Below the pieces are notes generated by a model, which saw only the letters and a list, made by a program, of their open reading frames with translations, made no database searches and was not told where the DNA came from. Below, one piece after another: positions 33,401-63,992 of a stretch of 64,000 bases of DNA. The stretch's first letter is position 1; every line of letters starts with the position of its first letter. A program made the translations under genes and the position numbers. Source of the stretch: Tubiluchus corallicola (taxonomy: Eukaryota > Animalia > Priapulida); NCBI GenBank assembly GCA_030141605.1, contig JAQGDQ010000643.1, positions 1 to 64,000 on the forward strand. Reading direction: 5' to 3'.

Positions 33401-36400
33401 AATGACATTCTGAAAAGCAAAGAGCCTTTCAAGGTCATTTAGAAATGAAGTGACAATTTCTGTTGCTTCAAGAAAAAATTTAACACTAATGCCCTTTTGT
33501 TAAATTCAATTTTTTTCTTTGCTCGATGATGGGCAGAGGAGTTGTGCGTGCGAATGAGTTTAATATTGAATAGGAGCAACAACATGCAGAATGAAGAAAA
33601 ATACTTTTCATTTTGTCCCTCAACATATTGAACAGAGAAGCATTTACATGCGTCACGTTGAGCAACGTTGGCGGTGACATTCTACGGAACAGAGAAGCAT
33701 TTACATGCGTCACGTGAGCACCCTTGGCGGTGACATTCTATGGAACAGAGAACCATTTACATGTGTCACGTAAGCAACCTTGGCGGTGACATTCCACGGA
33801 ACAGAGAACCATTTACATGTGTCACGTAAGCAACCTTGGCGGTGACATTCTACGGACAGAGAAGCATTTACATGCGTCACGTGAGCAACCTTGGCGGTGA
33901 CATTCTACGGAACAGAGAACCATTTACATGTGTCACGTAAGCAACCTTGGCGGTGACATTCTACGGACAGAGAAGCATTTACATGCGTCACGTGAGCAAC
34001 CTTGGCGGTGACATTCTACGGAACAGAGAACCATTTACATGTGTCACGTAAGCAACCTTGGCGGTGACATTCCACGGAACAGAGAACCATTTACATGTGT
34101 CACGTAAGCAACCTTGGCGGTGACATTCCACGGAACAGAGAACCATTTACATGTGTCACGTAAGCAACCTTGGCGGTGACATTCTACGGACAGAGAAGCA
34201 TTTACATGTGTCACGTGAGTGACCTTGGCGGTGACATTCTACGGAACAGAGAACCATTTACATGTGTCACGTAAGCAACCTTGGCGGTGACATTCTACGG
34301 ACAGAGAAGCATTTACATGCGTCATGTGAGCAACTTTGGTGGTGACATTCTACGGAACTGAGAAATGTTCAGGGTAAAAATCTGATCATTTGAATATAAT
34401 AATTAACACGTCAGCTAAGAAAAAACTATACCACTAGGAACATAAAAAATTATTTATGCATGTCTCCACCAGGGGAGTAAAACATTTACAGCATCAGGAA
34501 ATATAAAACTTAGCCTTAATATCTGAAGTGTGTAAAATACTCACCTGTTTCTTTTGTCTCATGACAGCCAGTTTTTGTGCCATCTGTATCTGCCGCTGTC
34601 TTTCCGCCTCCTCGGCTTCGCGTCGCTTCTTCTCTCTGTACTCCTCCCGTAACGAGTCGAGAGCCTCCCGAGCTGCATTCAGCTGTGTAAGCTTGTCTTG
34701 CAGACCTTCGTAATAAGCTGTATAAATCAACCAAAAAAAACCACTAATTAACTAGTTGAAGCCTGTGTGAGCCAAATGAGTCAACAAAAAACTTCAAGTT
34801 CCTAACCCTAACATTCTTAATTGCAGCTGTTTGCAAACCCAGTTTTTTCTCCCTGGCTTCTTATTTGTGAAATTCACTAATAGAAAATTGTTTCTCTGGT
34901 AACTAAAACTCAGCACCTCCAGAAAATTATTAACAGGTGTTCTCTTATCACTCTCACTAGTTTACGAGAATTGCATCTTTCTGGACATCCATGTATCCAT
35001 GGTATTACCTTCTTGGGAAGATTTGTGACACTGAGCAACTACAGACCTTTTTGGGAAGATTTGTGACACTGAGCAACTACAGACCTTTTTGGGAAGATTT
35101 GTGACACTGAGCAACTACAGACCTTTTTGGGAAGATTTGTGACACTGAGCAACTACAAACCTTTTTGGGAAGATTTGTGACACTGAGCAACTACAGACCT
35201 TTTTGGGATGATTTGTGATACTGAGCAACTACAGACCTTTTTGGGAAGATTTGTGACACTGAGCAACTACAAACCTTTTTGGGAAGATTTGTGACACTGA
35301 GCAACTACAGACCTTTTTGGGATGATTTGTGATACTGAGCAACTACAGACCTTTTTGGGAAGATTTGTGACACTGAGCAACTACAAACCTTTTTGGGAAG
35401 ATTTGTGACACTGAGCAACTACAGACCTTTTTGGGAAGATTTGTGACACTGAGCAACTACAGACCTTTTTGGGTTGATTTGTGACACTGAGCAACTACAG
35501 ACCTTTTTGGGATAATTTGTGACACTGAGCAACTACAGACCTTTTTGGGGTGATTTGTACATAAATTTCAAGCAACAGTAAAGTAAGAGACATACATCTT
35601 GCCTCGTCCTGCTCTTGAATATACTTCAACAGCTGTGGATGCATGGCGCTGATCGTCATGAACAGCGACTGTACCGTCGTGTCATTGCCGATGTGTCGTC
35701 CACGGCTAGAATTACTCTTCATGCGGTTGACGAAGATCTCGATGCTGCGACGTAGAGCGCTCGTGAACTCCTCCACGTCTTCTACTTCACCGTTCTGGAA
35801 CTTCTGCAATAACAGGTAATTATGCACTAGCTGCTGAGCAGTTTGCATGTATTTATATTTTACATCAACACGTCACATCTGCATCAACATTTTACAACAA
35901 TTTTTCAAAACCAAAAAACATACACAACTTTCTTTACTTTTCAATGAATAAGCACGCAGATAAAGTCGAAACTGTGTGCTATAGTAAATGCTCTTAGTCT
36001 GTTTAGCAATGATCAATAATGCGCGGACATTCCAGATACTTCTGTCTGCCACCTCTCACATGATAGTAGGCTAGCACAACTTACTTACATGTACAACCTA
36101 TAACACTGTAGAAGGACGGGTGACAACAATGCCTGGAACAGCCGAGAAATTTATCAAACTCAAAGACAATGGATGTTCCAAATAGCGGGCAGCACAGGGA
36201 GTAGAAAATGAACTTCGAAATACACCCCTCCCGTTTCATCTAGTAACCATCTCTCCCAACAAAACCCTCAGCATTTTGTAGACCGTTTCGTCCTCTTTCT
36301 GCAAGTGTGCTTATTTTTTTCCCAGCATGCCCAAACAGTTGCACAAATATAGTTTTTCTAGAGGCTGTTTGAGCAGTTTGTTCATTCAATCAAAAAAGTC

Positions 36401-39400
36401 CAGAAAAGCTTCTTAACCTTGTATGAATTTAAATTATGTTAGCAACTTAAGTTTTGGTGAATGAAAATAAATTGCTACAGAAATCTTGAACACATCAGCA
36501 ACACGGCAAGTTGGAAAATAACGCAGAAAAACCTTCGCATACGAAAGTGCATTGTACAGCATTGAACCGATGAACAAATGTCAGACAAGACTAGTACAAT
36601 GAAGCACAGTGTCTTAATATTATATTTTATTTTAGTTGTTATTTTCATGCTGAAGAAATATGAAGTTATAGAACTGTAAGGTTGTTGTAAAACCCAATCA
36701 AAGTGCCAACGTATCGAGAAGTAATGTTTCAGAAAAAAGCTTATACAGTATGGCTTACAACTAGTAGACATGTGGTAATTCTGCAATTTATATTAAAAAT
36801 GCTAAACCGTTTTTCTAACTTGCCTACTGATTTGCACTACTCACACACCGAGGAGAGATGAGGACTCTAGTTATCTAACCACAGTTCATTTGAGAAAATT
36901 GTGCGCATCCCATTAATTCAGCTACAAGAACTGCACAAACTAATGCATAACTGATGCATAACTAATGCATAGTGAAACATTAACTGAAATATAGCCTAAA
37001 AATCTTCCCGATCTTTTTACAAAATTCATTAGACTTCTGCTAGCGATCTAAGGTCACAGTTGTACTAATTTTAGTAGAATGTGTGCCAGTAGCTCTACGT
37101 GCAATAACGACAGCTAAATACAGTGGAGATCAAAGAAAATTGTCATAAATAGATAACCAGTACCTCTTGAATGGTCTTAACTGCTGGTGGACCTGTGTCG
37201 ATCTTCTTCACTTCGGTTTCGCCCTTCTCTTCATTCGTAGGAGCAGAGGGGCTGCTGTTTGGCTTCATCTCGCCACGCTTCTGTTCCCAGTAGTGACGGT
37301 TCAAGTATTTAGCAAGTTCTGGATCCATTTCTGGCAGAGAATCCATCGATGGCGCCGACTCCTAGTAAGACGTGAATATTTTTGTGGCTTCATAAATTCA
37401 TGAACCTTGTAGCTACCACAACATGATTTCATTAAATAATAGTATTACTCTTTTTGTGACACTAATGCGTGTAATAAATTGAAATTGCTGAACTACGAAA
37501 AGAATCAAATTTAGGATATAATTAAAGCTAAGAGATAAAGGTTTTCTGCCTGATGTACTTTGATCACAAAACTAATCATTTACATTTTTGCCAGATTCAC
37601 AGCAATTTAAACATACTTAGGGCATAAGAAACCATGAGTACTTTAAAATCACAGGATAATGTAAAATCAGAGCAAACAAAAGTTCCAGGGACTGCTATGT
37701 ATAAGTATGTAGGTTACTTACGGCGGGAACAGTTGCTCCGCTAGCAGGTGACGTTGACAAAATTGCACTCGTTTGTTTCTAAAAATGTGAAAGAAATTGT
37801 AAATTTCATCTACAGGCCAACAATTTATAAAATGCTTCAAAATACTTTGTTGCTACAGTAATTTCAAATAAAATTGCTAAGGTTTTTATGCATATTTACA
37901 ATCTTAACATCGTGTAACTTATTGGAACCTTAACAAACAAAAGCACGTAGTTTTTTCACTCATGGATATTTGTAGTTCCAACACATTACCAATGCATAAG
38001 AAACAAGTATTTTGCAGCAGGTGAATGTCTCACACATTTGAGCCAAGTGAAGATTGTAATACAGCATTACTGAATAATGTCCGCAAAGTATTTTGCACTA
38101 GATCAATGTTTCACACATTTGTGCCAAGTGAAGATTGTAATAGAGCATTACTGAATAACTAGCAAAGGCCTCGCAAAAAATTTTGCGTATAAATACACTT
38201 ATAATCAAAAATACGCGAACATCCTACATAGTCCTCATTTATAACACAAAGCGAGCTGCAGCTTTTACTCAATTAAAGTTATAAGCCTATAGACAGAGTA
38301 TAATGGATGACGTCAGAACAATGGCTTTGCGTCAGCAGTTTTCCAAGCGAAAATTGCCGAAAATAGAACATCTAATTAACTCGTCGGTACTCCTCTTGGT
38401 GGACATGTACTAAAATATAGCCCTGTTCTTCCTCTTTCTAAAGAGCTGTATATCTCCTTTCGAGAGTCCCACCAGGCACTGCTATAATGTTTTTTCCGCA
38501 GGCTGTTTGGTCAAAATTTCGAAAAAATCGCGAGTTGGGTCCGGGAAAACGTCCGTTACGGGACGCCGTGGCCCTCTCGCGAATTCTAAATATGCCTACT
38601 ACACCCATCACTGAACGGGCTATCTATCCATAGCCAACACCACCCATGGCCCGTTCCCGTTCTTCAGATTTCAACGTATAAGTTTTACAAAAAACGGCCG
38701 ATAAATGGCCATTTTGGAGGTTTTTCGCCCCCCGCCCCTCCCGGTGGGCCCGATTCGAAAAATAAACCCCCAATGGCACGACACTAGATCGAGACCTTTC
38801 ATTTGATGTATAGATTGCCGCAAATGCTGCCGTCGTCCGAGCTGTAGCCTCAAATCTTATATATATATATATATACCAGCAGAATTAATATATACGATGT
38901 CCGCAAAGTATTTTGCACCAGATCAATGTTTCACACATTTGTGCCAAGTGAAGATTGTAATAGAGCATTGCTGAATAATGTCCGCAAAGTATTTTGCACC
39001 AGATCAATGTTTCACACATTTGTGCCAAGTGAAGATTGTAATACAGCATTACTGAATAATATCCGCAAAGTATTTTGCACCAGATCAATGTTTCACACAT
39101 TTGTGCCAAGTGAAGATTGTAATACAGCATTACTGAATAATGTCCGCAAAGTATTTTGCACCAGGTCAATGTTTCACACATTTGTGCCAAGTGAAGATTG
39201 TAATAGAGCATTACTGAATAATATCCGCAAAGTATTTTGCACCAGGTCAATGTTTCACACATTTGTCCCAAGTGAAGATTGTAATACAGCATTACTGAAT
39301 AATGTCCGCAAAGTATTTTGGCGATGACTGCCAACGCAAAAGTATAAATTCTACCACGACCAATATGGGCCTATAATACTTCTGAGAACCAGTCTTTATT

Positions 39401-48400: not shown

Positions 48401-51400
48401 ACTAATTTTTTGTATTCATATTTTTCCCTTGCCATTTCTAGATGCAGAACAACTGTTTACAAATCCAGTTTTTTCATTGAGTTTCTTTTATGTATTCTGT
48501 ACCAGAAAAATTGTTTCCGTTACCCGCTTCGAGATGGATGTCAATAGGTACCTTCCATCACTAGCGAGTTAATTATAAAATTGCATTTTTCTGGACTTGT
48601 ACTTACACTTTTTATCTTTCGACTGTAGCGGCTTGCCCTAGCTCTGGCTAAGATAACTTGTGTAAAATAGATTAAGATTTCTGTAATATTACAAGGTATG
48701 AGAGGCTATAAATTTATGCATCTTAGTAAAAAAGGAACATAAACTTTCGGTCATTTTTCTTTAGCATTGGCTTACACTTTTTATCTTTCGACTGTTGCGG
48801 CTTGCCCTAGCTTTGGCTAAGATAACTCGAGAGTAAAATAGATTAAGATTTCTGTAATACTACAATGTATGAGAAGCTATGAATTTATGCATCTTAGTAA
48901 AAAAGGAACATAAACTTTCGGTCATTTTTCTTTAGCATTGGCTTACACTTTTTATCTTTCGACTGTTGCGGCTTGCCCTAGCTTTGGCTAAGATAACTCG
49001 AGAGTAAAATAGATTAAGATTTCTGTAATACTACAATGTATGAGAAGCTATGAATTTATGCATCTTAGTAAAAAAGGAACATAAACTTTCAGTCATTTTT
49101 CTTTAGCATTGGCTTACACTTTTTATCTTTCGACTGTTGCGGCTTGCCCTAGCTTTGGCTAAGATAACTCGAGAGTAAAATAGATTAAGATTTCTGTAAT
49201 ACTACAATGTATGAGAAGCTATGAATTTATGCATCTTAGTAAAAAAGGAACATAAACTTTCGGTCATTTTTCTTTAGCATTGGCTTACACTTTTTATCTT
49301 TCGACTGTTGCGGCTTGCCCTAGCTTTGGCTAAGATAACTCGAGAGTAAAATAGATTAAGATTTCTGTAATACTACAATGTATGAGAAGCTATGAATTTA
49401 TGCATCTTAGTAAAAAAGGAACATAAACTTTCAGTCATTTTTCTTTAGCATTGGCTTACACTTTTTATCTTTCGACTGTTGCGGCTTGCCCTAGCTTTGG
49501 CTAAGATAACTCGAGAGTAAAATAGATTAAGATTTCTGTAATACTACAATGTATGAGAAGCTATGAATTTATGCATCTTAGTAAAAAAGGAACATAAACT
49601 TTCGGTCATTTTTCTTTAGCATTGGCTTACACTTTTTATCTTTCGACTGTTGCGGCTTGCCCTAGCTTTGGCTAAGATAACTCGAGAGTAAAATAGATTA
49701 AGATTTCTGTAATACTACAATGTATGAGAAGCTATGAATTTATGCATCTTAGTAAAAAAGGAACATAAACTTTCGGTCATTTTTCTTTAGCATTGGCTTA
49801 CACTTTTTATCTTTCGACTGTTGCGGCTTGCCCTAGCTTTGGCTAAGATAACTCGAGAGTAAAATAGATTAAGATTTCTGTAATACTACAATGTATGAGA
49901 AGCTATGAATTTATGCATCTTAGTAAAAAAGGAACATAAACTTTCGGTCATTTTTCTTTAGCATTGGCTTCTCACTCTGTTCAGTAAACTCATAATTACG
50001 ATTATAAGTAATGATCAATTCAAACTACTTACCTTAGCCAGTTCTTTCATATCTTCCATAAATGGCTTCGTGGCCACCTCATTGTGAATGACGGAACCAC
50101 AGTTTTTCACAACAGACTCCAACAACTGCAAGCAGAACCATACATCAAATTATGAGAAAAAAAGTTGACTTTAGTGTAGTCAAATGGCTTTACATTAGCG
50201 GATTCTAACCTAGCTAAACTTACCTGGAGCGCAAACATGCCCACATGTGGATTTTGATTAAACATTTTCTTCTTGATGCCCTGGAGGGCATACTTTGGCC
50301 TGAAAAAAGAAAACACATTAATCCAGCTTTTAAACTACAAACTATCAACTTTTTAAAACGTAACCTAAAACAAATTCATCTACTAGCATGAATCACACAA
50401 TCTAACACTTTAGCATCTTGTGGTAACTATAGCAACAGTTCGTCAGCAACAGCCTGCTTACAAACAAATCTTATTGATTTGAAATAGCACTATTGCAAAT
50501 CATGTATAATTGCATTTTTATACCATATACAAGTAAGTACTGCTTAGCAAGAAACAATAATCTTTAAAAGACACATAGATAAGCCCACTTTAAGAATAAA
50601 ACCTACTAATAACATTCACTTAGTTTGTTATGTTATGTTAACCTATGTAACATTTACGTCAGTCTTGATTGTGAAAAATGAAATCAGGTGCCAAAAATAA
50701 GTCTCTCTAAGTGTGTTAGCTTAGGGCGTTGTCATTAAGCATCAGTAACTATGGCTAGGATATGGATGGTTGCCGTAAGTAATTTATGCAACAACGCAAT
50801 CTTTGTAGCCATAATAACTACCTTTAGAGTATTTGGCACTTTAAGCTTGTCCTGTTACTATTGTTACTGTTCTTCTGAAGAACTTTAGCACTGCTGTGAA
50901 GTTTAGTTACTAATCCCAACTTGCTTAAAAAGCATTTTAAAGGACCAAAAATGGAGGTAAGAAAAACTGAGAGAAATATAATATAAATTGCAAACTTACG
51001 CTACATCTCCCTGTCGAATCTGGTCGCATATTTGAAGTATGGCATCCCAATCTGGTTCTAGCAGCAACTGACTTGTAGCTTTTTCTGAAATGCCAATTTT
51101 AATTGTCATAATGCTTCATCACAAGAAAAACCGTTCAAAGCCACTAATCAGACTTAGTAACCCTACACCTACACACAACTACAGTGAACTCGATTTGACA
51201 TTGTAATTAATATTTAATGTTAAATGTACATTTAACTGCCTCAATGTTAGAATAGATAAAACTGTTTCAAAGTTGACTGGAAAAATTCACAGCGTAAATA
51301 AAAAATCATTGAGCCATGCGATTTAAATTACGCTTTGCCGTGATCACAAAAAGCTACGTGATAATGTACTACTATTCATTTCATATTAAAGTTTAATGTT

Positions 51401-51507
51401 TCAAGTGTGGTACATAGCAAGCCAAGTCCCAATGAAGAGGGATGAATTAACGTTATAACAAAACACATACCTAGTTGTCTATCGAAGTGTCCGGTAGGCC
51501 GAAACAT
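30451..51507 (-). CDS. HGS: Hepatocyte growth factor-regulated tyrosine kinase substrate (Hrs, ESCRT-0)
   Basis: Exons (minus): 51507-51471, 51084-51000, 50299-50224, 50125-50033, 48238-48095, 47728-47630, 46938-46814, 45841-45760, [41557-41525 candidate], 40393-40289, 37778-37722, 37361-37164, 35803-35596, 34717-34545, 33311-33143, 31857-31732, 31043-30451. VHS ([21 protein letters not shown]), FYVE ([10 protein letters not shown]...RKHHCRNCG), UIM ([16 protein letters not shown]), PSAP motif, coiled coil (YYEGLQDKL), P/Q-rich tail and C-terminal clathrin box LISFD. Confidence 0.97.
31286..31580. repeat. ~143-bp tandem duplication in an HGS intron
   Basis: ttgtagtttcggtagtcacatctgacacac at 31286 and 31429. 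Confidence 0.88.
32035..32355. repeat. ~67-bp tandem repeat containing the hairpin TTGAGCAACA-TG-TGTTGCTCAA
   Basis: About 5 copies visible. Confidence 0.9.
33630..34360. repeat. ~56-bp minisatellite, about 13 copies
   Basis: gaacagagaa[g/c]catttacatg[c/t]gtcacgt...ggcggtgacattc repeated. Confidence 0.95.
35013..35558. repeat. 38-bp minisatellite, about 14 copies
   Basis: ttgggaagatttgtgacactgagcaactacagaccttt repeated. Confidence 0.95.
38006..39320. repeat. 81-bp minisatellite split by a Helitron
   Basis: About 2 units at 38006-38158 and about 5 units at 38898-39320. Confidence 0.92.
38159..38897 (-). mobile_element. Non-autonomous Helitron (739 bp)
   Basis: On the minus strand it starts TC, ends CTAG, has the subterminal hairpin cgcaaaa-ttt-tttgcg, and is inserted between A and T with no TSD. 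Removing it restores the repeat unit ctgaataa|tgtccgc. Confidence 0.88.
40899..41000 (-). mobile_element. Truncated 3' end of a second copy of the same Helitron family
   Basis: ctagcaaaggccacgcaaaat...ataaatgcacttata...gcagcttttact matches 38159-38270. Confidence 0.7.
44353..45558. mobile_element. MITE-like element with CGATA-rich subterminal inverted repeats and an internal 60-bp x3 repeat (44965-45147)
   Basis: taggcatgttaacgataacgat at the left end versus atcgttgg...gtcgttacagccct at the right end; no clear TSD. Confidence 0.55.
48602..49972. repeat. 171-bp satellite-like tandem array, 8 near-identical units, in HGS intron 4
   Basis: Unit starts (cttacactttttatc) at 48602, 48771, 48942, 49113, 49284, 49455, 49626 and 49797. 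Confidence 0.97.
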
Positions 51508-51917
51508 GGCTTAAAACTGGATTCGCTTTGGAATCTTTCAGAGCAAAAATGAGTAAAAAGCACCTGACAATTTCGCTAAGGTACTGTACAGTATCGTCAC
51601 TATCGTGACGTCATGGGCAAACAGCATTTACCAGACCGAACAAATCGCTAAACGATCATTTATTAACGATCGAGTAAGGTCTGTCGTGTGTGTACAGTGC
51701 AAAGTGGATCTGTGTGATTTTGATAGTTTCTGATTTGTAAACTTTTCGGAAGTCATTCACGAGTTTCGCTTGCAACTCGTCTACCGGGTTGATTTAAGCA
51801 ATGATGCAGTGTGTTAAAATTTTTAAATCTGAAAATTTAAGACTATAGCAGCAACTTGAACTTCGTGTCGGAAAAAGGATGACTTGATTAGTACCGTAAT
51901 TTAGTATTCCAATCATT
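51508..51917. promoter_or_regulatory. HGS/ABCC1 bidirectional promoter, left copy
   Basis: 410 bp between divergent ATGs (HGS 51507 minus, ABCC exon-1 copy 51918 plus); CpG-richer; perfect CRE/ATF palindrome TGACGTCA at 51606-51613. Confidence 0.75.
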
Positions 51918-51971
51918 ATGCCTTACCATGACCAATATACTCTTAGTCAGTTTTGCGGTTCAGAATTTTGG
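51918..51971 (+). other. Duplicated ABCC1-like first coding exon (MPYHDQYTLSQFCGSEFW|gt)
   Basis: Identical to 58872-58925 with an intact GT donor; it faces the 3' end of the retroelement. Confidence 0.85.
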
Positions 51972-52412
51972 GTACGTCACTATTCGTTTAATAGAATAGA
52001 TTTCCTTACCTAGTTTAGTGTTGTGATGTTTATGTAACAGGTAATAAAAGTATTAGTAGCACGAGATATTTGAGATATCTTCATTCAAAACTTTTTAACA
52101 AAGGTTAGCATGGAAGTGTGTTACACTATGCAATGAATGAGCAATCGGCAAGGGTGATTGCAGCCCAGACCCCCAAACAAAGTATTCCATAGTTATCGCT
52201 ACAGTGCTCTTCGGAACCAAGAAATAAATAAATATATATGTCCAGGACCAGAATGATAGAATGTATTTGGTAATTTATATTCTGTATTTGCATTTAGTTT
52301 AGTTTAGGGGGGCAGTGGTGTCGGGGAGATTGTATAGGATGGAAAAATCCCACCCCCCGACACATTGCTGAGGCCTTCGACAGGCCCATTGCAATTATTC
52401 ACTGCTATACGT

Positions 52413-55400
52413 CTATTGGTCGTACTCGGCAAGCCTTCCAGCTTGCTTCAGATACGCCGCTAGTTTTTTCAGGTTTAAGTTCTCTACAACTGCTCTAAGT
52501 GTTGTATTTTTATTTCCCAGACATTTGATACGAGCACCCTGGTAGGCGGTGCATCGTCCCACGTGATGGTCCGGTGTTTCGTCTTCCTGACCACATTTCG
52601 GGCAAATCGCGGATTGTGCTCGACAAGTGGTTTTTTTATGTTTTTGGAGATTACAGTGTCCGGTTAGGACCTGTATAACCATGTTGAGTTGAGTTCTACT
52701 GAGACTCAGGAGCCTATTGCAGACTCGGGCCGAGGCCCAGCCCACATGTTCCTTTGTTCTCTTGCAGTCCTCACGATTATTCCACGACGTTTCCCATTGT
52801 TTTAAACTCCATCCCTTAATCGCGTAGACACAGCTAGCGTAAGGGACGGGCAGATAGGGTTCTGGTCCCTCCGGAGAGAGCTCAGATCCCTTTTTAGCAA
52901 GTTTGTCTGCCTCTTCGTTACCATGTACTCCTTCGTGTCCAGGAATCCATGTAACCAAGACTCGGTTTCTTTTTCCAAGTATGTTCAAGTTTTCAACACA
53001 ACGTAAAACCGAGATAGATTTTACTGAATTGTTTTCAGTAGCTTTAATAGCCGCCTGGCTGTCTGACAGGATGACTATTGATTGATTCTGGAGTCCTTCC
53101 GAAGACATTATCTCCGCCGCTTGTGAGATGGAAACTTCTGCCTGGAAAACAGTACTCAATTTCCCAAGATAGAAGAACTCCTCCAATACTCTGGACTCAG
53201 TCGGATACTCGATACGTATACCTGCACCGATCCTTCCGCCCAGTTTGGAACCATCGGTATAACACCTGACACAGTTCCTATCCATTTCGCCTTCCGATTT
53301 GATAGCGATTTCTATTTCCTGAATCTGGCATTCGAAATTTCTTTCGAACACGCGTGTTCTTTTTCTTAAATCACCCGGCATATGCAACAGTTGGAGGTCG
53401 CGCCTATAGCTATGGCACACATCGATATGACTTTTAGACTTACCAAAAGTTCCCACGGTCTTCGCTGTCCAGAGCCCCGCCGTATCTATACGGTATGACC
53501 CTCGGACCGCCTCCGACCGAATGAACTCGTCTATTGGTGTGATATTCAACAACATCTCCAATGCACCGGTAGGAGTACTTGGGAACGCTGAAGAAATCAT
53601 TAAGCATGCTAATCTCTGTACTTTCTGGAGCATTTTCCTGAGGTACATTTTTTCCAACCCGCTGACCCAGGACACACACGCATACGTCATGAAAGGACGC
53701 ACCATTGCCGTGTATATCCATTTCATGATCCGCGGTTGGATACCCCACGTTTTACCAACAATTTGTCTACATTGCATAAGTGCCGCCGTCGCCTTGTTGG
53801 TGACCCGTGTTATATGGCTCTTCCAAGTCAGTTTACTGTCTAGGGTTACCCCTAGCAGTTTCGCTTCATTGGAGAGTTGGAGCTTCTGTCCATTCATCCA
53901 GAGATCCCCAATATTTGGATTTCTCTTGTTTGTGAACATGATTACTTCGGTCTTACTACTGCTGAATTCTAGTTCAGTTTTCCTGGACCATTCAGCAGCA
54001 CTGTTAATTACATTTTGCGCCCTCCTTCTGACCGTCGATACGTTCGCACTAGCTATTAGTACTGCCAGGTCGTCGGCATAGGCTTGTGCATAAATTCCAT
54101 TTTCTTCAAATTCCCTAAGCAGAGAGTTCAATACACAGTTCCATAGCACGGGAGACAGTATTCCGCCTTGGGGGTTTCCCTTTACTACTTCCCTCTTTAC
54201 CGTGGCATCACACAGCTCTACTTGGACCGTACGGCACCTTACCATGTTCTCAATCCAGCGGATAAGAACTGGCGATACCTCAAGTTCAAGCAATGCGGCG
54301 GATATGCTATTAAAAGAAACGTTATCGAATGCCCCAACAATATCCAGAAAGACACCTAGTGAGAGCTTCTTTTTAGCAAGCTACGTTCAATACGCTGTAC
54401 ATACTCGTGCAGAGCAGTTTCCGTGGAAACGCCTGCGCGGAAGCCATACTGCACATTGGATAGTCTTGCTTGTAATTCAGTATCCTCGTTCAATTGATAG
54501 AAGACTATTCTCTCCAACCATTTCAGTTGAAATGACGTTAATGTTATCATCCGGAAAGACTTGACTTCTAAATAGCTATTCTTTCCGGGTTTCGGCAAAA
54601 ATACTCCTTTCCCTTCCTTCCAGGATCTCGGTACATGACCATACCTGAGACATGTCTGGAAAAGCATGAGGTAGTGTTTTTTAATGTATTTCCATCCTTT
54701 CTGCAACAGGACTGGATATATACCATCCGGTCCCGGAGCCTTGAACGGTTGGAATTCAAACAGTGCCGCTTTCACTCGTTCTTCCGAGCAAATGGAAGCG
54801 ATGAATTCCTCATCCACGGTCGCGCAAACAGGCAAATCCGTGGATGTGTCTGGTTCCGTTACTCGACTCCCTGGTGATAGGGTGTCGAGGAGCCGGTTTA
54901 AAGTTTCCTCCGGTGAACTGGTTAATTTACCGTCTTCTTTATACACACAGCTTAACTGCGCTGCTTTATTTCGGCGGAGGATCTTTACCAACCTAGCAGT
55001 TGGTGCCTGATCTTCCATCTTTTCCGTGAAACTCCGCCAGGATTGGCGTTTCGCCTTCCGGACGGCGTTTTTGAATATAGACTGGGTTAGCTTTCTTGTT
55101 TCCCAGTCTCGTTGATTTTTAGTCTTAGTGGCTCTCCTGCAAGCCCTGCGCGCCTCCTTGCGGAGACGGCTTAGCTCCGGATTCCACCATTTGTTCCCAT
55201 CCTTCTTCCTTTGCCTACGTAATGGGCAAGCAGTTTCATAAGAATGAATAACAGCAGCCTGAACTTCATCAGCCAAATCCTCAATATCCTCATTGGAGGA
55301 CACCTTGTATTCCCGGTTCAGTTCTGGAAGTTTATGCTCAAGTTCTTCCGCATACTTTTCCCAGCAAGTATGGCGGATGTTCCTGATAAGTGGGTTTTCT

Positions 55401-56201
55401 TTTGAAATACTGCTTTTCACTAGGAATCTTATATACATGTGGTCAGACAGCGATGGCACGTCACTGACATACCAATCGCATACTATGTCCCCTGCATGCA
55501 GATTCCTCAGTGTCAAGTCTAGCACCTCTTCTCTTGCTTTTGTTCGGAACGTTGGTTTACGGCCAACATTACAGAACTCAAGATTAGCGCTTGCACAATA
55601 CTCCAAGAGTTCCTCACCCCTGTCGTTGACATCGGTGGAACCCCATAACGTATGATGCGCATTAGCATCAGTCCCCACAATAATTGGAGTTTTATCACCG
55701 TCCCCGAATGATATCAGTTCCCTGAGTAACATAGGGGGAGCCGGTTGATCATGCACCATGTATGCCGAGGCGAAAATGAACTCATCTCCATCCCGGCACA
55801 CATTTTTTGCTTTAACCACCACAATGTCTGTATTCGAGAACACTGGAAGTAAAAAGCATTTTAGGTTAGGAGTGGCATAAATGCACGCCCGAGGCCTTTC
55901 TCCATTCCGGTTTCCCTGGAAACCGTCCTCGGAGTTTACCCCTAACTTCCCCACCGTGCGTCCAGGGTTCCTGTACAAAGACTAACCCGGTACGTATGTG
56001 TTTTACAACATCCTGCAAGTTGTAACTCGCAGCTTTGCTTTTGTGAAGATTGATTTGCCAGCACTCAATACCAGAGACACTTTGTGCTGGCTTCTCACCT
56101 ATTTTCTCCATAGTGTCCCCGGAAATAACATTCAATCTACCGTGGGTATTTCCACTGAAGACTGTCTGCGGCCGGGATTTTACTTTAGCCCCTGTTCCCA
56201 T
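52413..56201 (-). pseudogene. Retrotransposon ORF2 (APE endonuclease, reverse transcriptase, RNase H, CCHC knuckle) with two frameshifts
   Basis: QINLHKS..VQEPW..DANAHH..SDH (APE); QGGILSP and AYADD (RT); YTDGSK..FQAE..SDSQAA..WIPGHEGVHGNEEADKLAK (RNase H); CPKC..ETPDH..C. Frame breaks near 55925 and 54380. Confidence 0.93.
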
Positions 56202-56213
56202 ACTTTTCTGTAT

Positions 56214-57608
56214 TTACGTTTCCATACTGGACTCAGGTGCCTTCATCTGCGATTGCTCGACAGACGGCAGCTCCTTTGTTCCAGTGGCAACGTCGGGGGT
56301 TTTTCCACCCTCGGTACTCACTTCTGGACCCTTATCCACCGTTTGAACAGGTGTTTCCGGTTCCTTGGCTTTCCCTTGGTTTTCCTTTTTCTTTTTGGAC
56401 TGGAACGTGACTCGTTTGCATCCGGCGTACGGAGCAAACTCCAGTCGTTCCAGACCTGACAGGGACGGTTTCCAGACCGCTACTACGTGTAGCATTCCGC
56501 CGACCCCTTTTGACCCACCGCGGACCTCCATGTGCTTCCGTTGGAGTTCCGAATTACATCGGTCCACCAACATCAGCAGATCCTAGATTTTGATATCATC
56601 CTCATCCGGAATCCAAACCCCGAAGGTCCTTGCTGGCGGAAGATCTTTCGGTCCTCTCGCCTCGTACCCCGGGTGGCCCACAGATGGGTTTTCAATGTCC
56701 AGGACAAGCTGTTTTGCCCACTCCAGGGTTTTCTCGTCCTTGCACACGACATGGACTTTACCTTCATGTAGGTAGGTCCTCTCAATGCGGACAAGAAACC
56801 CCGGATCCGTTCTGAGAAGGACACGGTTGATCCCCGACTGTATTGCCCGTAAATCCGAGCCGTCCAGAGGGTCGTCTCCCGCGTCCTTTTTTGTAATTTT
56901 AAGGTGTTGGCCGCCAGACTTCACAGCCTTGGCGTATGAGGCCTTACTGCTTCCTTCTGTGCCTTCACCCTTTTGACCTTCCTCTCCCTTATGCCCCGCT
57001 TGCCCGGAGTCACCCCGGGGTCGCTTCACGTTCGAGATCGGACTTGGAGTTGAGAGAGCGCTGCTCGTTCTCTTTTTCACCACCGATGGGTTAGGAGTGG
57101 GAGCCTCCTCCTGATTGGCGATCGACATAGCCGACACACCTTTCAGAAGTCGTCTCTTTTCCTTCTTCCGCCGGTTTTTTTCATGATTTTTCCCCATCGG
57201 TTTCGATTCCTCGGGCTTGCTGGGCTCATTTGGAGCACCAGGATTCCGGGTATCTACTCCTTCTGGGGCAGGTACGGTGTTCAGAGTATACTCTGACAAC
57301 GCCGAACCTTTACTGGTCTTTGTAGTCCATGGATTCCCTTTTTCAGAGACTTGCATGTCCTCAGTTTCTTCCAAGAACTCCATAATTTTCGGCTGTTCTG
57401 GTTTCAAATCTGGTTCACGGGAAGATCCGGCTTTCACCGGCTTGTTCCCTGCAGCTTCGTTTAAATTTTGATGACGGGAAGATCCGGCTTTCACCGGCTT
57501 GTTCCCAGCAGGTTTTAATTTTGTTAGGGTAGGGAGCCGTGCTGGACTCGATTTTTCTTTCTCGTTCATTTCATAAGTTTGTTGGTTTTTAAAGCGGGTA
57601 AACTCCAA
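56214..57608 (-). pseudogene. Retrotransposon ORF1 (basic, gag-like) with one in-frame TAG at 56583-56585
   Basis: ORFs 57608-56583 and 56573-56214 are in the same frame; SYAKAVK and LEWAK...LPP..VWIP resemble LOA-type ORF1 (DUF4780-like, from recall); short internal repeat AGNKPVKAGSSR x2. Confidence 0.8.
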
Positions 57609-58079
57609 CCCAGGAGCCGACTGGCACTCACCAGCCCCCTCCGACCGGAAGAGATCAGGGACCTAGTACTGACGGACTTGTCAACGAAAGGTGGCCTCGG
57701 GAATGCCCCCCCAACGCACTCGCAGGCCCCTATCCAGTCGCCAACTGGAGCTACGAGTGCGAGGAGATTTTCACGAGTTGACGGAGGCAGCCCTCCCAGG
57801 TGGCTAGACCAGGAGCGGGCCTCTAGAACTACCTCGTGGCCGCGGCACGGAGCGCGTTTTAGACCTGTACCCTCCTTCACGATGAGATTCCGTCATAGGT
57901 TCCTTTCCCTCCCCCGCCTTTAGAGACAAGGTTCATGACAGCCGGTGGCCTTTGGAGGACAGACTCAGATTACGGAATGGGGAAGACTTCGGAGAAAACA
58001 GGCTTCTCGCTTTCGCTTGTTCCTGAGTTCCTAATTCTCCCACCACGCCCCATCCTTGTTCATTCCCCAGCAGCCAGGG

Positions 58080-58170
58080 TGTTCCTAGTCAGCCAGAATC
58101 ATTTGATAACCCTCGGGTCCATCATCTGTTGCCCGCGCGACACCACGTGGAGGTCAGGAACATGCCGCGC
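58080..58170 (-). ncRNA. HDV-like self-cleaving ribozyme at the element 5' end
   Basis: Minus strand GCGCGGC-AU-GUUCCUG-ACC-UCCACGU-GGU-GUCGCGC-GG-GCAA-CAGA...UCUG-GCUGAC-UAGGAAC. P1, P2, P3, P1.1, P4 and the J4/2 C-N-R-A motif all map onto the HDV double-pseudoknot. Confidence 0.88.
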
Positions 58171-58171
58171 C

Positions 58172-59248
58172 TGTTAAATGTACATTTAACTGCCTCAATG
58201 TTAGAATAGATAAAACTGTTTCAAAGTTGACTGGAAAAATTCACAGCGTAAATAAAAAATCATTGAGCCATGCGATTTAAATTACGCTTTGCCGTGATCA
58301 CAAAAAGCTACGTGATAATGTACTACTATTCATTTCATATTAAAGTTTAATGTTTCAAGTGTGGTACATAGCAAGCCAAGTCCCAATGAAGAGGGATGAA
58401 TTAACGTTATAACAAAACACATACCTAGTTGTCTATCGAAGTGTCCGGTAGGCCGAAACATGGCTTAAAACTGGATTCGCTTTGGAATCTTTCAGAGCAA
58501 AAATGAGTAAAAAGCACCTGACAATTTCGCTAAGGTACTGTACAGCATCGTCACTATCGTGACGTCATGGGCAAACAGCATTTACCAGACCGAACAAATC
58601 GCTAAACGATCATTTATTAACGATCGAGTAAGGTCTGTCGTGTGTGTACAGTGCAAAGTGGATCTGTGTGATTTTGATAGTTTCTGATTTGTAAACTTTT
58701 CGGAAGTCATTCACGAGTTTCGCTTGCAACTCGTCTACCGGGTTGGTTTAAGCAATGATGCAGTGTGTTAAAATTTTTAAATCTGAAAATTTAAGACTAT
58801 AGCAGCAACTTGAACTTCGTGTCGGAAAAAGGATGACTTGATTAGTACCGTAATTTAGTATTCCAATCATTATGCCTTACCATGACCAATATACTCTTAG
58901 TCAGTTTTGCGGTTCAGAATTTTGGGTACGTCACTATTCGTTTAATAGAATAGATTTCCTTACCTAGTTTAGTGTTGTGATGTTTATGTAACAGGTAATA
59001 AAAGTATTAGTAGCACGAGATATTTGAGATATCTTCATTCAAAACTTTTTAACAAAGGTTAGCATGGAAGTGTGTTACACTATGCAATGAATGAGCAATC
59101 GGCAAGGGTGATTGCAGCCCAGACCCCCAAACAAAGTATTCCATAGTTATCGCTACAGTGCTCTTCGGAACCAAGAAATAAATAAATATATATGTCCAGG
59201 ACCAGAATGATAGAATGTATTTGGTAATTTATATTCTGTATTTGCATT
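58172..59248. repeat. Right copy of the 1077-bp duplication, including the second bidirectional promoter (58462-58871; CRE 58560-58567)
   Basis: Matches 51218-52294. Confidence 0.97.
58425..58461 (-). other. Duplicated HGS first coding exon ([12 protein letters not shown]|gt)
   Basis: Identical to 51471-51507 with an intact donor; it lies about 250 bp upstream of the retroelement 5' end in the same orientation. Confidence 0.88.
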
Positions 59249-62200
59249 AGTACCTATTAATAGAGAATTTTTGCTGCTGTCAAACAACAAAAAGTTCTGA
59301 TTCTGAAGTAACCTCACTACAGTCACAGTCAGAATCAACACAGTAGGCCTACGTTTCGCTACAGTCCCTGACTCTACAGATACATTTTTGAGAACGTAAA
59401 TTACTTAGATTCTGACTTTAACAAATTTACAATCAGCTGGTGACTGTGGAATGCGTTCTAGAGAACAGTTAACTCTAGACTTTTCTACGATGATTGTGAT
59501 GTCACTTCTGTGGCCAAAGTTATGAATAACTCTTCTGTGATTGCAGTGGAAACTCTCTAATATAGCGGTGTTTCAGTATGTAAAAATTTAAGCAATTTGT
59601 GTTTGTATACTATACATACATACTAGTTACACAAGTATAATATACACAGTAGGGAGGGTGATAACCTGGTATTCTGTTAGATATACTAGATGTAGGACTT
59701 TCTTATCTATCTGTAAAGTACACTTAGGAACCAGATTTGTATTAGGCCGATAGCCTGTTAATCAGAAAGTGTTTACTTAATACGCTGTACTGTCTGCTTT
59801 GCTTTGTTAACTATAAAGCATGTACTGAATTCATGCTTTATTTGCTAACTTTTCTAATCATATGGAATAGTATTCGTTATTTATAATTAATGGTGAGCCT
59901 TTGCATGTATAACCCGTAGTTCTTCACCTTCAGTTTGTTGTTTTGGGGGATTGAGAGCGGGAGATAGAGAGTTAATTTATTTACTTTGATTTTTAATTCT
60001 TTATTTTGAACTTAATTTCATATTATAATTTACATATATACAACGTACAATATTATAAAAAACAAAAACCAATACATACAAATTACACAAATTTACATAA
60101 ATACAAAAGTTGCAATAATAATCTGCACCACTGCTGGCTTATGTGTGATGTAATTTTAGCTTCGCTTGCTGGAATTTTCTGACATATTAAATTTTACTGG
60201 AATCAGATTTTTTCGTTGAAGTTAATACACGTTTTCTATGTAATGCATCGAAATACGTCACGTGAATTTCAATACAGGCAGGCAGAGAGAGGAGAGAGGG
60301 AAAGAGGAGGAGAAGAGAGAGAGAGAGAGGAGGGAGGGAAAGAGGAGAAGAGAGAGAGAGAGAGTGAGTGAGAGAGAGAGAGAGAGAGAGGTGGGAGGGA
60401 AAGAGGAGGCAGAGAGAAAGAGAGAGAGAGAGAGAGGAGGGAGGGAAAGAGGAGAAGAGAGAGAGAGAGAGAGAGAGACTGAGTGAGAGAGAGAGAGAGG
60501 AGGGAGGGAAAGAGGAGGCAGAGAGAAAGAGAGAGAGAGAGGAGGGAGGGAAAGAGGAGAAGAGAAGAGAGAGAGAGAGAGAGAGCATGAGGGGAAGTTT
60601 ATTAATTTTTTATTTGTTTTGTATTTTTAGAATGTGAATCTGACATGGAACACTGACCAGCCAGACTTGACTCCATGCTTTGAATGGACGTGCCTGCTGT
60701 GGAGTGTTTGTTTTTTTCTGGTGCTGTTTTTTCCAGTCCACATCGGCTCCGTGTTGCGTGCGAAGGATTCGCCCTTAGAACATAGTTGGCATAACATATC
60801 AAAATCTGTAAGCAAAACATCTGCAGTATATAAGAAATACAAATATTAGTTCAAAATCTTTCATTTTAGAATTTGTTACAATGTTTAATCATGTGACTGT
60901 TCGTTTTTTTGTAGTAACTAATAGATTGCTAAGACGTTCACTTGTTGTATGTTTTCAGATTGTTACCGTGTTGCTGTTTCTAGTTGCCTTTATAGAATAT
61001 TCCTACAGTTTATACCAGTGGAAGCAGGATATCTATGTACCAAATGAAGCGTTCGTTTCTCCAATTATTTTAGCAGCATGTTTCGTAAGTTAATCGCTCT
61101 TTATAAAACTTTATACCAATACAAAAATGACAAGGTCTATGATGAAGGTTTCAGCAACTTTTAAAGCAAATTTTGTAAATATTTATCAAATTCAAAATTG
61201 GCTTTCAAATAATGAAGTGCGTTATTGGTATTTTGTCCTTTGGGTTCTCTATGGCACAATAAGTTTTTAGAGATTAGCAATGGAATATTAGCAGATATGA
61301 TTTACTGTAACTGAAGTACCAACAATGTGTTTACATAATATTTAAGCACCTGATTGCTGTCTCATTTTTTTAGTAAGTAGAGCATTTCTCACGTTTTTAA
61401 ATATCTAAATTAGCCTTTGATCTCCAACATTTCTGATGTGGATGTTTTATAGGGTTCGGTTGCTAGCACAGCACCCAATTCTGGTTTTAGACTGTTTTAA
61501 GACAAGTATGGTTAGCTATGAGGTCAATGACAGCAGACTCCAGCATGTTGTGTCTGGGATATAATCATTTTCCAACATTTCTTCTTTTCAGATACTGATT
61601 CTGTACATGATCCAGTTCGATAGGGATCATGGGGAACGTTCCCCGGGATTGCTTTTCCTTTTTCTTTTTCTTTTGGTCGTACACGGAGCTGTTGTACTTC
61701 AGACTGACATTCGTACCATCATTGCTGAGGTAAAAGTAGCAGCATAAACCAAAAAGTGCTCCAAAAATCACCACCATGTAAAGTACTTAACATACACGAA
61801 TGGTTAAACATACGATTTTGCAGGGCAGGGCTATAGACAGCAGTTTCGCACGGCGATTATCAGTAGCTCAGCTCTGATGTAAATTTATAGCTTAATGTGT
61901 GCTAAATATTTTCATCATTTGCAGAGCACTTTTGATGCTAGTGTTTCAGTTATGCTATACTATACATTTAAATAAATTATTGCTCCTGTACTGTGCAGAA
62001 AGACTTAATTTGATGAGCTGACTTGCGAAACAAATTATGTGACGTACAGCTAACATGGCTGTTCTTCTTTTAGCTACATTTTATCAAATTTCTTATGCTA
62101 TTTTAGTGTTTTAAGTTGGTGTAAAAGTACTTATTAGAATACTTAGTTCTTGCTGTTTTCTTTGAACTGCTTTGAAGAGAAGTTTGTATCATGTTACTTA

Positions 62201-63530
62201 GTGCGATTGTGTCATAGTGCATAATTATTTACATTGTAATTTGTAAATGTCAGTGGTACCTTGATACTTTGGTGATGTTGTAGGTACCAACATATTGATT
62301 ATTGATTCGCGTGTTATTATTGTGTTGTTAATTTTTTTATGTGAAAAACTAATAAATCTGGTGCTTCAGTACTTCAGGTAAACTTTGCAATGTGGTAATA
62401 AAATCTTAGGGAAATTTTCTACCTTTTCAGCTGTGCAGATGTAGATTTACGATAAATGCCGACAAGTCATCATTGATTATTTTTCAATGTTAATACAGTC
62501 AATTTATTAACAAACAATATACCATTTTTTAAAATTTAATCGTGCAATACTGTATAAGTTGAGATGCATCGTTCAAAGTCATAGTTTTGATTTCTACTCT
62601 CGTTTTCACACACAGAGTTAATGCTTAATTATGCAAATACGCTTTTCTGGGGCACTCTATTGCGGAATAAATTTTAGCCCGCTAGAAATTTTATTTAATA
62701 ATAGTAATTGTGCATGTAATTGTGATATCATATAATCGTCGCAAATAAGCAAAATCGCTTTGACGTCGTTGCGTCTAATTAGCGTTCAGACATTTGAATC
62801 ATTGTATTTGGCGTAGTGACCGGAGAAAAATGTTTTTTTCAGGGCAAAAACCAGGACGAGTTTCGATTTACGGTATTTTGCATTTACTACTGTCTGGTGC
62901 TGGTTTTGTTTGTGCTGAGCTGCTTTGCTGACCCGGCTGATCCGGTTGTTGTGCCCGAATTTACCGAGGTTTGTTCATGCATTATCTGTCGTTCATGTCA
63001 TTCCGTTGACAAAGGTAACAAAGTGGTCACGACGTGTTTTTTACTGCCACATTTAAGCAGCGTCGAGGCTAGTCAGTTAATAGATAAGTGACTCCCGAGT
63101 TTAATATTGTATGCGATTTCATTTGCCATGCTGATTCTGGTTGTTCACCTTGTAAAAGGGCTTACATGCATACATGACTAAGATGTCTCTGCTGGTTCAG
63201 AGATGTCGCACCGCCCCAAGTTGCAGCACGTTGCTAGATGTCTCGTCACAACTAACTGCATTAAGTCGGTCTTCCCAGTGAGCGCTGGCGTTCCGACCTT
63301 TATAAAAGATACGGTACTTTAAAATCATTAAACTACTTAATGTGTTAACTATGTCCATTTCATTATAACAATATACGAAATTTGTGTGTTAGGTTAGGCA
63401 TGATGCTCATTAGCTACTTGCTTATAATAGACAGATTATAGTGTGATTTATTGTGTTTTCTTCTGTAGAGGCCATGCCGGGAGAAAAGGACGTCTTTTCT
63501 AAGCCAGATAACCTACTGGTGGTGTACAGG
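58872..63530 (+). CDS. ABCC1: ABCC1/MRP1-like long ABCC transporter, exons 1-6 (TMD0 and start of L0); gene continues past the window
   Basis: Exons 58872-58925, 60631-60807, 60959-61084, 61592-61729, 62843-62968, 63469-63530. FCGSEFW|NVNLTWNTDQPDLTPCFEWT... and RPCREKRTSFLSQITYWWCTG match the MRP1 N-terminal motifs; the exact paralogue is uncertain. Confidence 0.88.
60280..60585. repeat. (GA)n-rich polypurine compound microsatellite
   Basis: Directly visible. Confidence 0.95.
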
Positions 63531-63992
63531 GTAAGCTGTGTAGAAATAACCATGTGTTACTCTATGCTTCTTAACTTCATGTGTTTTTTCGTGTGATGTG
63601 CACAGAATTCTTACGTTGTACAGGGTAAGCTGTGTAGAAATAACCATGTGTTACTCTATGCTTCTTAACTTCGTGTATTTTTCCGTGTGATGTGCACAGT
63701 AATCTTACGTTGTACAGGGTAAGCTGTGTAGAAATAACCATGTGTTACTCTATGCTTCTTAACTTCATGTATTTTTCGTGTGATGTGCACAGTAATCTTA
63801 CGTTGTACAGGGTAAGCTGTGTAGAAATAACCATGTGTTACTCTATGCTTCTTAACTTCGTGTATTTTTCCGTGTGATGTGCACAGTAATCTTACGTTGT
63901 ACAGGGTAAGCTGTGTAGAAATAACCATGTGTTACTCTATGCTTCTTAATTTCGTGTATTTTTTCGTGTGATGTGCACAGTAAACTTACGTT
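63523..63992 (+). repeat. ~94-bp tandem repeat x5 starting at the ABCC exon-6 donor
   Basis: tgtacagg|gtaagctgtg at 63523, 63617, 63711, 63804 and 63898. Confidence 0.95.

Follow-up and report, generated by a model that had tools for sequence, protein, structure and literature searches.

How does a retrotransposon without long terminal repeats (a non-LTR element) come to lie between two nearly identical copies of a whole gene-start region, and what becomes of the genes that start there? The question is raised by a stretch of 64,000 nucleotides of the priapulid Tubiluchus corallicola (assembly GCA_030141605.1, contig JAQGDQ010000643.1, positions 1 to 64,000; the window), in which a unit of 1077 base pairs (bp) with the first exons of the divergent genes HGS and ABCC1 stands on both sides of a long interspersed nuclear element (LINE). 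The unit–element–unit arrangement is a real and unusual natural allele, and the product of a known kind of event. The explanation that we favor, and hold to be probable, is that a ribozyme-led, full-length LINE made the duplication of the HGS/ABCC1 start region in one insertion; the allele appears to segregate beside an empty one.

Four public DNA runs from two samples, all of them contig sets, contain the stretch (runs X1, X2, and X4 are from sample S1, run X3 from the other sample). Self-comparison of the window gives a direct repeat of 1077 bp, with an offset of 6954. Identity ends sharply at both limits of the unit, and no similarity extends past either end. The 5877 bp between the copies have 49% GC, against 32%–36% in the surroundings. 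The (TAAAC)n tail of the element adjoins the left copy and its 5′ end the right copy, both exactly, and such direct repeats, flush with both ends of an element, have the form of a target-site duplication. A sequence-only reading of the window had described this geometry and had named two copy-specific differences, 51592/58546 and 51792/58746; the description is borne out, and these two are the sole mismatches.

51218..52294, no strand: left unit copy; runs on into HGS intron 1 and exon 2; matched end to end by one contig of run X2
52295..58171, minus strand: LOA-like non-LTR retrotransposon, full-length, decayed
58172..59248, no strand: right unit copy; runs on into ABCC1 intron 1 and exon 2

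The deep run X2 contains the unit as a single contig, exactly 1077 bp long and at depth 282.4, and the right flank is one contig (59219–60042) at depth 178.4, a ratio of 1.58. Haploid depth is 93 as given by this flank, and 81 and 106 as given by a heterozygous pair at 50627; the unit yields 96 with three copies and 146 with two. The sequence-only reading had held that single-copy depth would speak against it, and the unit stands at about three haploid depths. Since the unit contig ends exactly at both limits, there is a second neighbor at each limit, and bin arithmetic gives the extra path at the unit ends depths of 88.4, 89.1, and 88.9 (about one haploid depth). The flank contigs are continuous across 51217/51218 and 59248/59249, the flanks having no second neighbor, and therefore a haplotype with a single insertion at one limit of the unit is not seen in S1. 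At 51592, runs X1, X2, and X4 agree with the right copy, and at 51792 with the left copy, as expected of a two-to-one vote; X1 and X2 differ in their choice at heterozygous sites of the left flank. Run X1 contains one 2231-bp contig (left flank, unit, right flank; depth about 10), as an empty allele would give, though low depth would give it too. Most likely, S1 carries one filled and one empty allele. That the empty site holds one copy of the unit is indicated, at the level of contigs, by the 3:2 depth, the haploid end paths, and the 2:1 allele pattern.

Within the unit, two short coding exons face away from each other head to head, with ATGs 410 bp apart and a GT donor after each. These exon 1 pieces are named by position and by splice phase with the second exons, not by a search of their own.

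51471..51507, minus strand: HGS exon 1, coding part, left copy; ATG at 51507, donor at 51470
58425..58461, minus strand: HGS exon 1, coding part, right copy (offset 6954); donor 254 nucleotides (nt) upstream of the element's 5′ end
51918..51971, plus strand: ABCC1 exon 1, coding part, left copy; ATG at 51918, donor at 51972; faces into the element, antisense
58872..58925, plus strand: ABCC1 exon 1, coding part, right copy
51508..51917 (right copy 58462–58871), no strand: putative bidirectional promoter and 5′ untranslated regions (UTRs), 410 bp between the ATGs, CpG-rich
51002..51084, minus strand: HGS exon 2, outside the unit (human HRS residues 14–40, E 2e-9)
60631..60807, plus strand: reading frame of ABCC1 exon 2, outside the unit (MRP1 residues 19–54, E 2e-5); 3′ limit of the exon not fixed

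Between the ATGs, the CpG observed/expected ratio is 1.3 (vs. 0.42 in the left flank), and a TGACGTCA site resembling the cyclic AMP response element (CRE) stands at 51606 within a short inverted repeat, with the same site in the right copy. From these features we infer that the 410 bp act as a promoter. The inverted repeat (51597–51613 and 58551–58567, between the start codons) consists of two TGACG half-sites overlapping the full TGACGTCA and could serve both directions. The earlier claim that the unit contains exon 1, donor site, and promoter of both genes holds for the exons, the donors, and the extent from intron to intron; for the promoter, CpG content and the CRE-like site point to it.

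For each gene, an element-free path is present. HGS would be read from the left copy, with 787 nt kept upstream of its ATG and a native first intron of 386 nt, and ABCC1 from the right copy, with 700 nt kept and a native first intron of 1705 nt; neither would be read across the element. The claim that the insertion costs neither gene stands as far as these paths go and is overstated beyond them: the left copy's ABCC1 promoter also faces the element, in antisense, and interference or silencing is possible. The orientation of the right copy's HGS promoter, in sense toward the element, is as had been described.

The element itself contains the following features.

56214..57662, minus strand: frame of open reading frame 1 (ORF1); weak match to DUF4780 (E 0.003, below cut-off); internal stop at 56585–56583, end stop at 56216–56214
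52413..56075, minus strand: ORF2, with apurinic/apyrimidinic endonuclease (APE), reverse transcriptase (RT), RNase H, and a C-terminal CX2CX8HX4C motif; frameshifts near 55921 and 54380
52295..52308, minus strand: 3′ tail, (TAAAC)n after a C run
58171, minus strand: single additional base at the 5′ junction, absent from the target and from the other copies seen

The domain matches in ORF2 are to APE (PF14529, E 6e-19), RT (PF00078, E 4e-22), and, downstream of RT, RNase H (PF00075, E 1e-11). By this order the element fits the LOA clade, a label that also draws on what we take to be typical of that clade; an RNase H downstream of RT occurs in other clades as well. Neither the protein cluster look-up nor the Atlas gave a clade name, the nearest named proteins (34%–43% identical) are uncharacterized, and a literature search for DUF4780 with retrotransposons found no paper. 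Intact relatives of 1250 amino acids cover the three pieces of ORF2 at 59%–70% identity and so place both frameshifts. We did not observe a restriction-like endonuclease (RLE) paired with APE, as in Dualen: APE, RT, and RNase H are the only domains found, and the three pieces span the full ORF2 (1250 amino acids) of close relatives. With one stop and two frameshifts, this copy is dead, and a working protein is not predicted from it. Other family copies in the runs lack the stop and the frameshifts. The sequence-only reading had the element gaining a spare promoter; position and orientation agree with this, but a decayed copy cannot make its proteins, and the promoter could supply RNA only.

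The family has about 16 full-length copies, and about 40 in total, per diploid genome (run X2). Its insertion sites differ between the samples: X3 has a copy cut at 58094 for which X2 shows no branch. Run X3 also contains an unbranched family contig of 4058 bp, which suggests near-identical, recently active copies. The tail repeat varies among copies; it is (TAAAC)n here, and some others have a (TAATC)n-like repeat. A 54-bp internal duplication (57401–57511) lies close to where ORF1 starts.

The sequence-only reading missed a feature at the 5′ end, where the first residues can form a fold like that of the hepatitis delta virus (HDV) ribozyme.

58080..58170, minus strand: HDV-like ribozyme fold, first 91 nt; predicted cut 5′ of 58170

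The helices are P1 (58170–58164/58141–58135, 7 bp), P2 (58162–58155/58087–58080), and P3 (58154–58152/58144–58142); together with a CC in L3 that pairs with GG, P4, and the catalytic C, they make up the nested double pseudoknot. A custom descriptor, composed after sight of the element sequence, has one match in the 128 kb of window strands and none in 400 Markov copies of the element. The predicted cut at 58170 coincides with the family's own 5′ end, where other copies start (runs X1, X3, and X4). Such a putative ribozyme strengthens the reading as a target-site duplication. Among 12 related metagenome loci, Rfam gave no HDV-like match on the 8 searched and the core pattern none on the 5 searched, so that covariation does not support the fold; both element ends were not recovered at these 12 loci, nor by a search of genome contigs. 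A cap-derived origin of the extra base at 58171 was considered and dropped, as an RNA cut by the ribozyme has no cap.

In the favored sequence of events, the endonuclease would nick ABCC1 intron 1 (52294/59248), and reverse transcription, primed there from the tail, would proceed up to the ribozyme end and add one extra base. The finished complementary DNA would then be joined, instead of beside the nick, to a second break in HGS intron 1 at a distance of 1077 nt, either on that chromatid or on its sister, and fill-in would copy the stretch between both breaks, giving the duplication. The two breaks are situated some hundreds of bases downstream of the divergent start codons; as a speculation, transcription may expose the DNA there. 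Afterward, the element would decay neutrally, and crossover or gene conversion involving empty alleles would probably renew the unit copies. Recombination between the two units would excise the element scar-free.

In the present allele, the right HGS promoter would read the element in sense. The ribozyme would cut this transcript 254 nt past the donor, so that a unit-length element RNA, encoding no working protein, could be released from the spare host promoter. The left ABCC1 promoter would read the element in antisense, and its transcript could be spliced over an intron of 8659 nt into a normal ABCC1 mRNA. Double-strand RNA, polymerase collision, and read-through over working promoters are possible costs. 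A bolder proposal, which we consider rather unlikely, takes the allele as a promoterless ribozyme-led LINE with LTR-like, two-way host repeats. Transcribed from both ends, it would be a source of double-strand RNA that silences the active family, as well as a second route to the mRNA of ABCC1, a drug-efflux pump, and for these reasons would have outlived scar-free loop-out; kilobase duplications would be a habit of this APE-only family. Long duplications at other copies could not be recognized among the matches listed, in which five tail-side and three head-side flanks cannot be paired, and the related loci come without both flanks.

Several results weigh against the favored explanation. Contig depth is not strict copy number, and S1 is possibly the source of the window assembly. 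No record spans both copies among these short-word contigs, and the filled junctions are deduced from contig ends and bin arithmetic; the contig records seen are 32 of 1617 and 24 of 129, with 21 of 82 and 18 of 48 loose ends, and junction contigs are not among these. In Rfam, the ribozyme scores below the gathering cut-offs (RF00094, 31.9 bits, E 0.016, gathering 50; RF02682, 27.3 bits, E 0.009, gathering 44), and a plain fold of the 5′ end, by a method without pseudoknots, is no better than shuffles (z 0.02). No microhomology is present at the 5′ junction. The element also looks older than the copies around it. At least 20 element sites (0.34%) show the other letter in all of the X2 depth, with four clear indels and a fifth partly shared. 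About seven differences between the unit copies would then be expected, against the two seen (P = 0.02; counting the five indels, 0.006). Moreover, run X3, which covers the unit only partly, agrees with the right copy at 58746 in a single contig (depth 8) that possibly represents a filled allele, and S1's empty allele has the left copy's base at 51792/58746. With its copy truncated at 58094, absent from the X2 graph, X3 is likely from another individual. The unit copies have therefore probably not simply drifted from one identical pair, and their difference is not a clock.

The element differences were taken from 40 of 102 difference rows; 28 fall in the element, and leaving out one row in the 3′ UTR (52343) gives 27. 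These 27 coding differences from other copies comprise 20 that change the residue and 7 that do not, and the decay looks neutral. Changes from C/G to T/A at CpG are 6 of 13, compared with 21% expected (P = 0.04).

Under the one-insertion reading, this mismatch in age would be explained by exchange of the unit copies with empty alleles, as expected of an old polymorphism, and promoter constraint would add to the low difference between the copies. The earlier idea of a shared promoter split into two separately evolvable ones becomes doubtful in consequence, as one of the two differences looks like standing polymorphism and suggests such exchange. We had taken the low copy difference as proof of an origin on the same chromatid; this was dropped, X3 being only about 0.5% from the window at the locus.

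An old element between similar copies is also accounted for if two separate insertions in the same orientation, at opposite ends of the unit and on different haplotypes, were followed by unequal recombination; the element would be chimeric and the unit copies would come from two alleles. The difference at 58746, shared with the other sample, agrees with this, as does the copy difference of 0.19%, near the 0.3%–0.6% between X3 and the window at the locus, and the family is polymorphic, as the X3 copy cut at 58094 indicates. However, two hits within 1.1 kb are needed from a family of that size, neither parent allele is seen in the X2 flank contigs, and a lone sense insertion with its ribozyme in HGS intron 1 is likely harmful, which makes this origin quite improbable.

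The age mismatch disappears altogether if the event is young, that is, if an active relative acted in trans on the RNA of an already decayed element and copied it, with a long duplication at the insertion, possibly via a break on the homologous chromosome. A helper protein could exist, since other copies lack the stop and the frameshifts, and the ribozyme region of the inserted copy equals the family majority. However, a source copy with the same defects is not seen (popped bubbles would hide one), and the CpG excess fits decay in either place; we give this version, too, a slim chance. Least credible, to the point of being nearly dismissed, is that two haplotypes with one unit per chromosome were joined through the repeat in assembly: the missing spanning molecule and the X1 contig from flank to flank speak for it, but the raised depth of the unit in X2 and the branching exactly at its limits, with flanks lacking a second neighbor, do not, and the X1 contig is also expected from an empty allele or from low depth.

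The window contains further repeats and variation. Within an HGS intron (48602–49970), a 171-bp sequence is repeated eight times in tandem, with 98% likeness between repeats. At 50585–50882, S1's other haplotype differs by 20 substitutions and 4 gaps over 296 bp of HGS intron, far above the 0.4%–0.5% nearby. Repeat pieces occur in ABCC1 intron 1 (59992–60167 and 59279–59400); the first has a depth above 10,000 in run X2 and is likely a fragment of a short interspersed nuclear element or a miniature inverted-repeat transposable element. Many minisatellite arrays, with periods of 2–94 bp, are present, at 1334–2426, 33630–34364, 35007–35561, 38897–39320, 60284–60585, and 63523–63992.

The locus offers what appears to be a heterozygous allele from nature, its shared promoter uncoupled by one insertion, and the empty allele in the same animal is a built-in control. 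Three questions become directly testable: do target-site duplications of kilobase size last in the germ lines of animals, can a single LINE copy become a source of silencing when host promoters face each other across it, and does a duplicated first exon raise the output of the MRP1 pump? If the spare promoters are silent in RNA, the allele is a curiosity of structural variation. The size of the duplication has precedents and the element is dead; beyond the sequence-only reading, better support and the ribozyme are added, and the functional consequences are predictions.

That reading had put target-site duplications normally at tens of bp at most; kilobase duplications at LINE insertions have clear precedents in human cells, chicken cells, and Chlamydomonas. 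At the level of titles and the opening lines of abstracts, with few subscription papers and no supplements, the literature gave no duplicated bidirectional promoter around a LINE, a weak negative. A survey of such duplications in the human genome covered 5–30 bp only (PMC2912911), and 250 bp are given for HERV-K (PMC5488345). HDV-like ribozymes in baggins, RTE, R2, and L1Tc have their fold at the element's first base, and baggins and RTE, which lack a promoter, are cut free from transcripts of the host (PMC6765202). The present element shares the 5′ HDV-like fold at the first base, with cleavage and the lack of an internal promoter being putative here. In the LOA clade (LOA, TRIM, Bilbo, Lian, as well as CiLOA), APE and RT are followed by RNase H downstream of RT (PMC2790886), the order by which our element is tentatively placed here. 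As to size, the duplication resembles those of ZfL2-2 in wild-type DT40 cells, with 1228 bp in 1 of 25 insertions (PMC2666801), and of L1, with up to 1.6 kb in repair-complemented cells and 5.3 kb in cells deficient in nucleotide excision repair (PMC5223499). For large duplications, the authors of the latter suggest that the second nick falls far from the first and that the copies may subsequently recombine, with loss of the insertion (PMC5223499). Those elements were engineered and studied in cell culture (PMC5223499; PMC2666801), whereas here the allele is natural, apparently old, and apparently segregating, with a full-length element. In a tumor, an L1 insertion bridges the ends of a tandem duplication, and a break on the sister chromatid is proposed (PMC7058536); one insertion joins both ends there as here, but that event is somatic and spans 22.6 Mb. 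Another likeness is Dualen-4b_cRei in mutation-accumulation lines of Chlamydomonas, where heritable LINE insertions have duplications on both sides with a median of 900 bp (PMC9977147, which also cites a 126-bp case in R9). In Dualen, this family habit is ascribed to RLE together with APE (PMC9977147), whereas in the Tubiluchus element APE alone was found, and this element stands, as a single case in an animal host, around a promoter unit of two genes.

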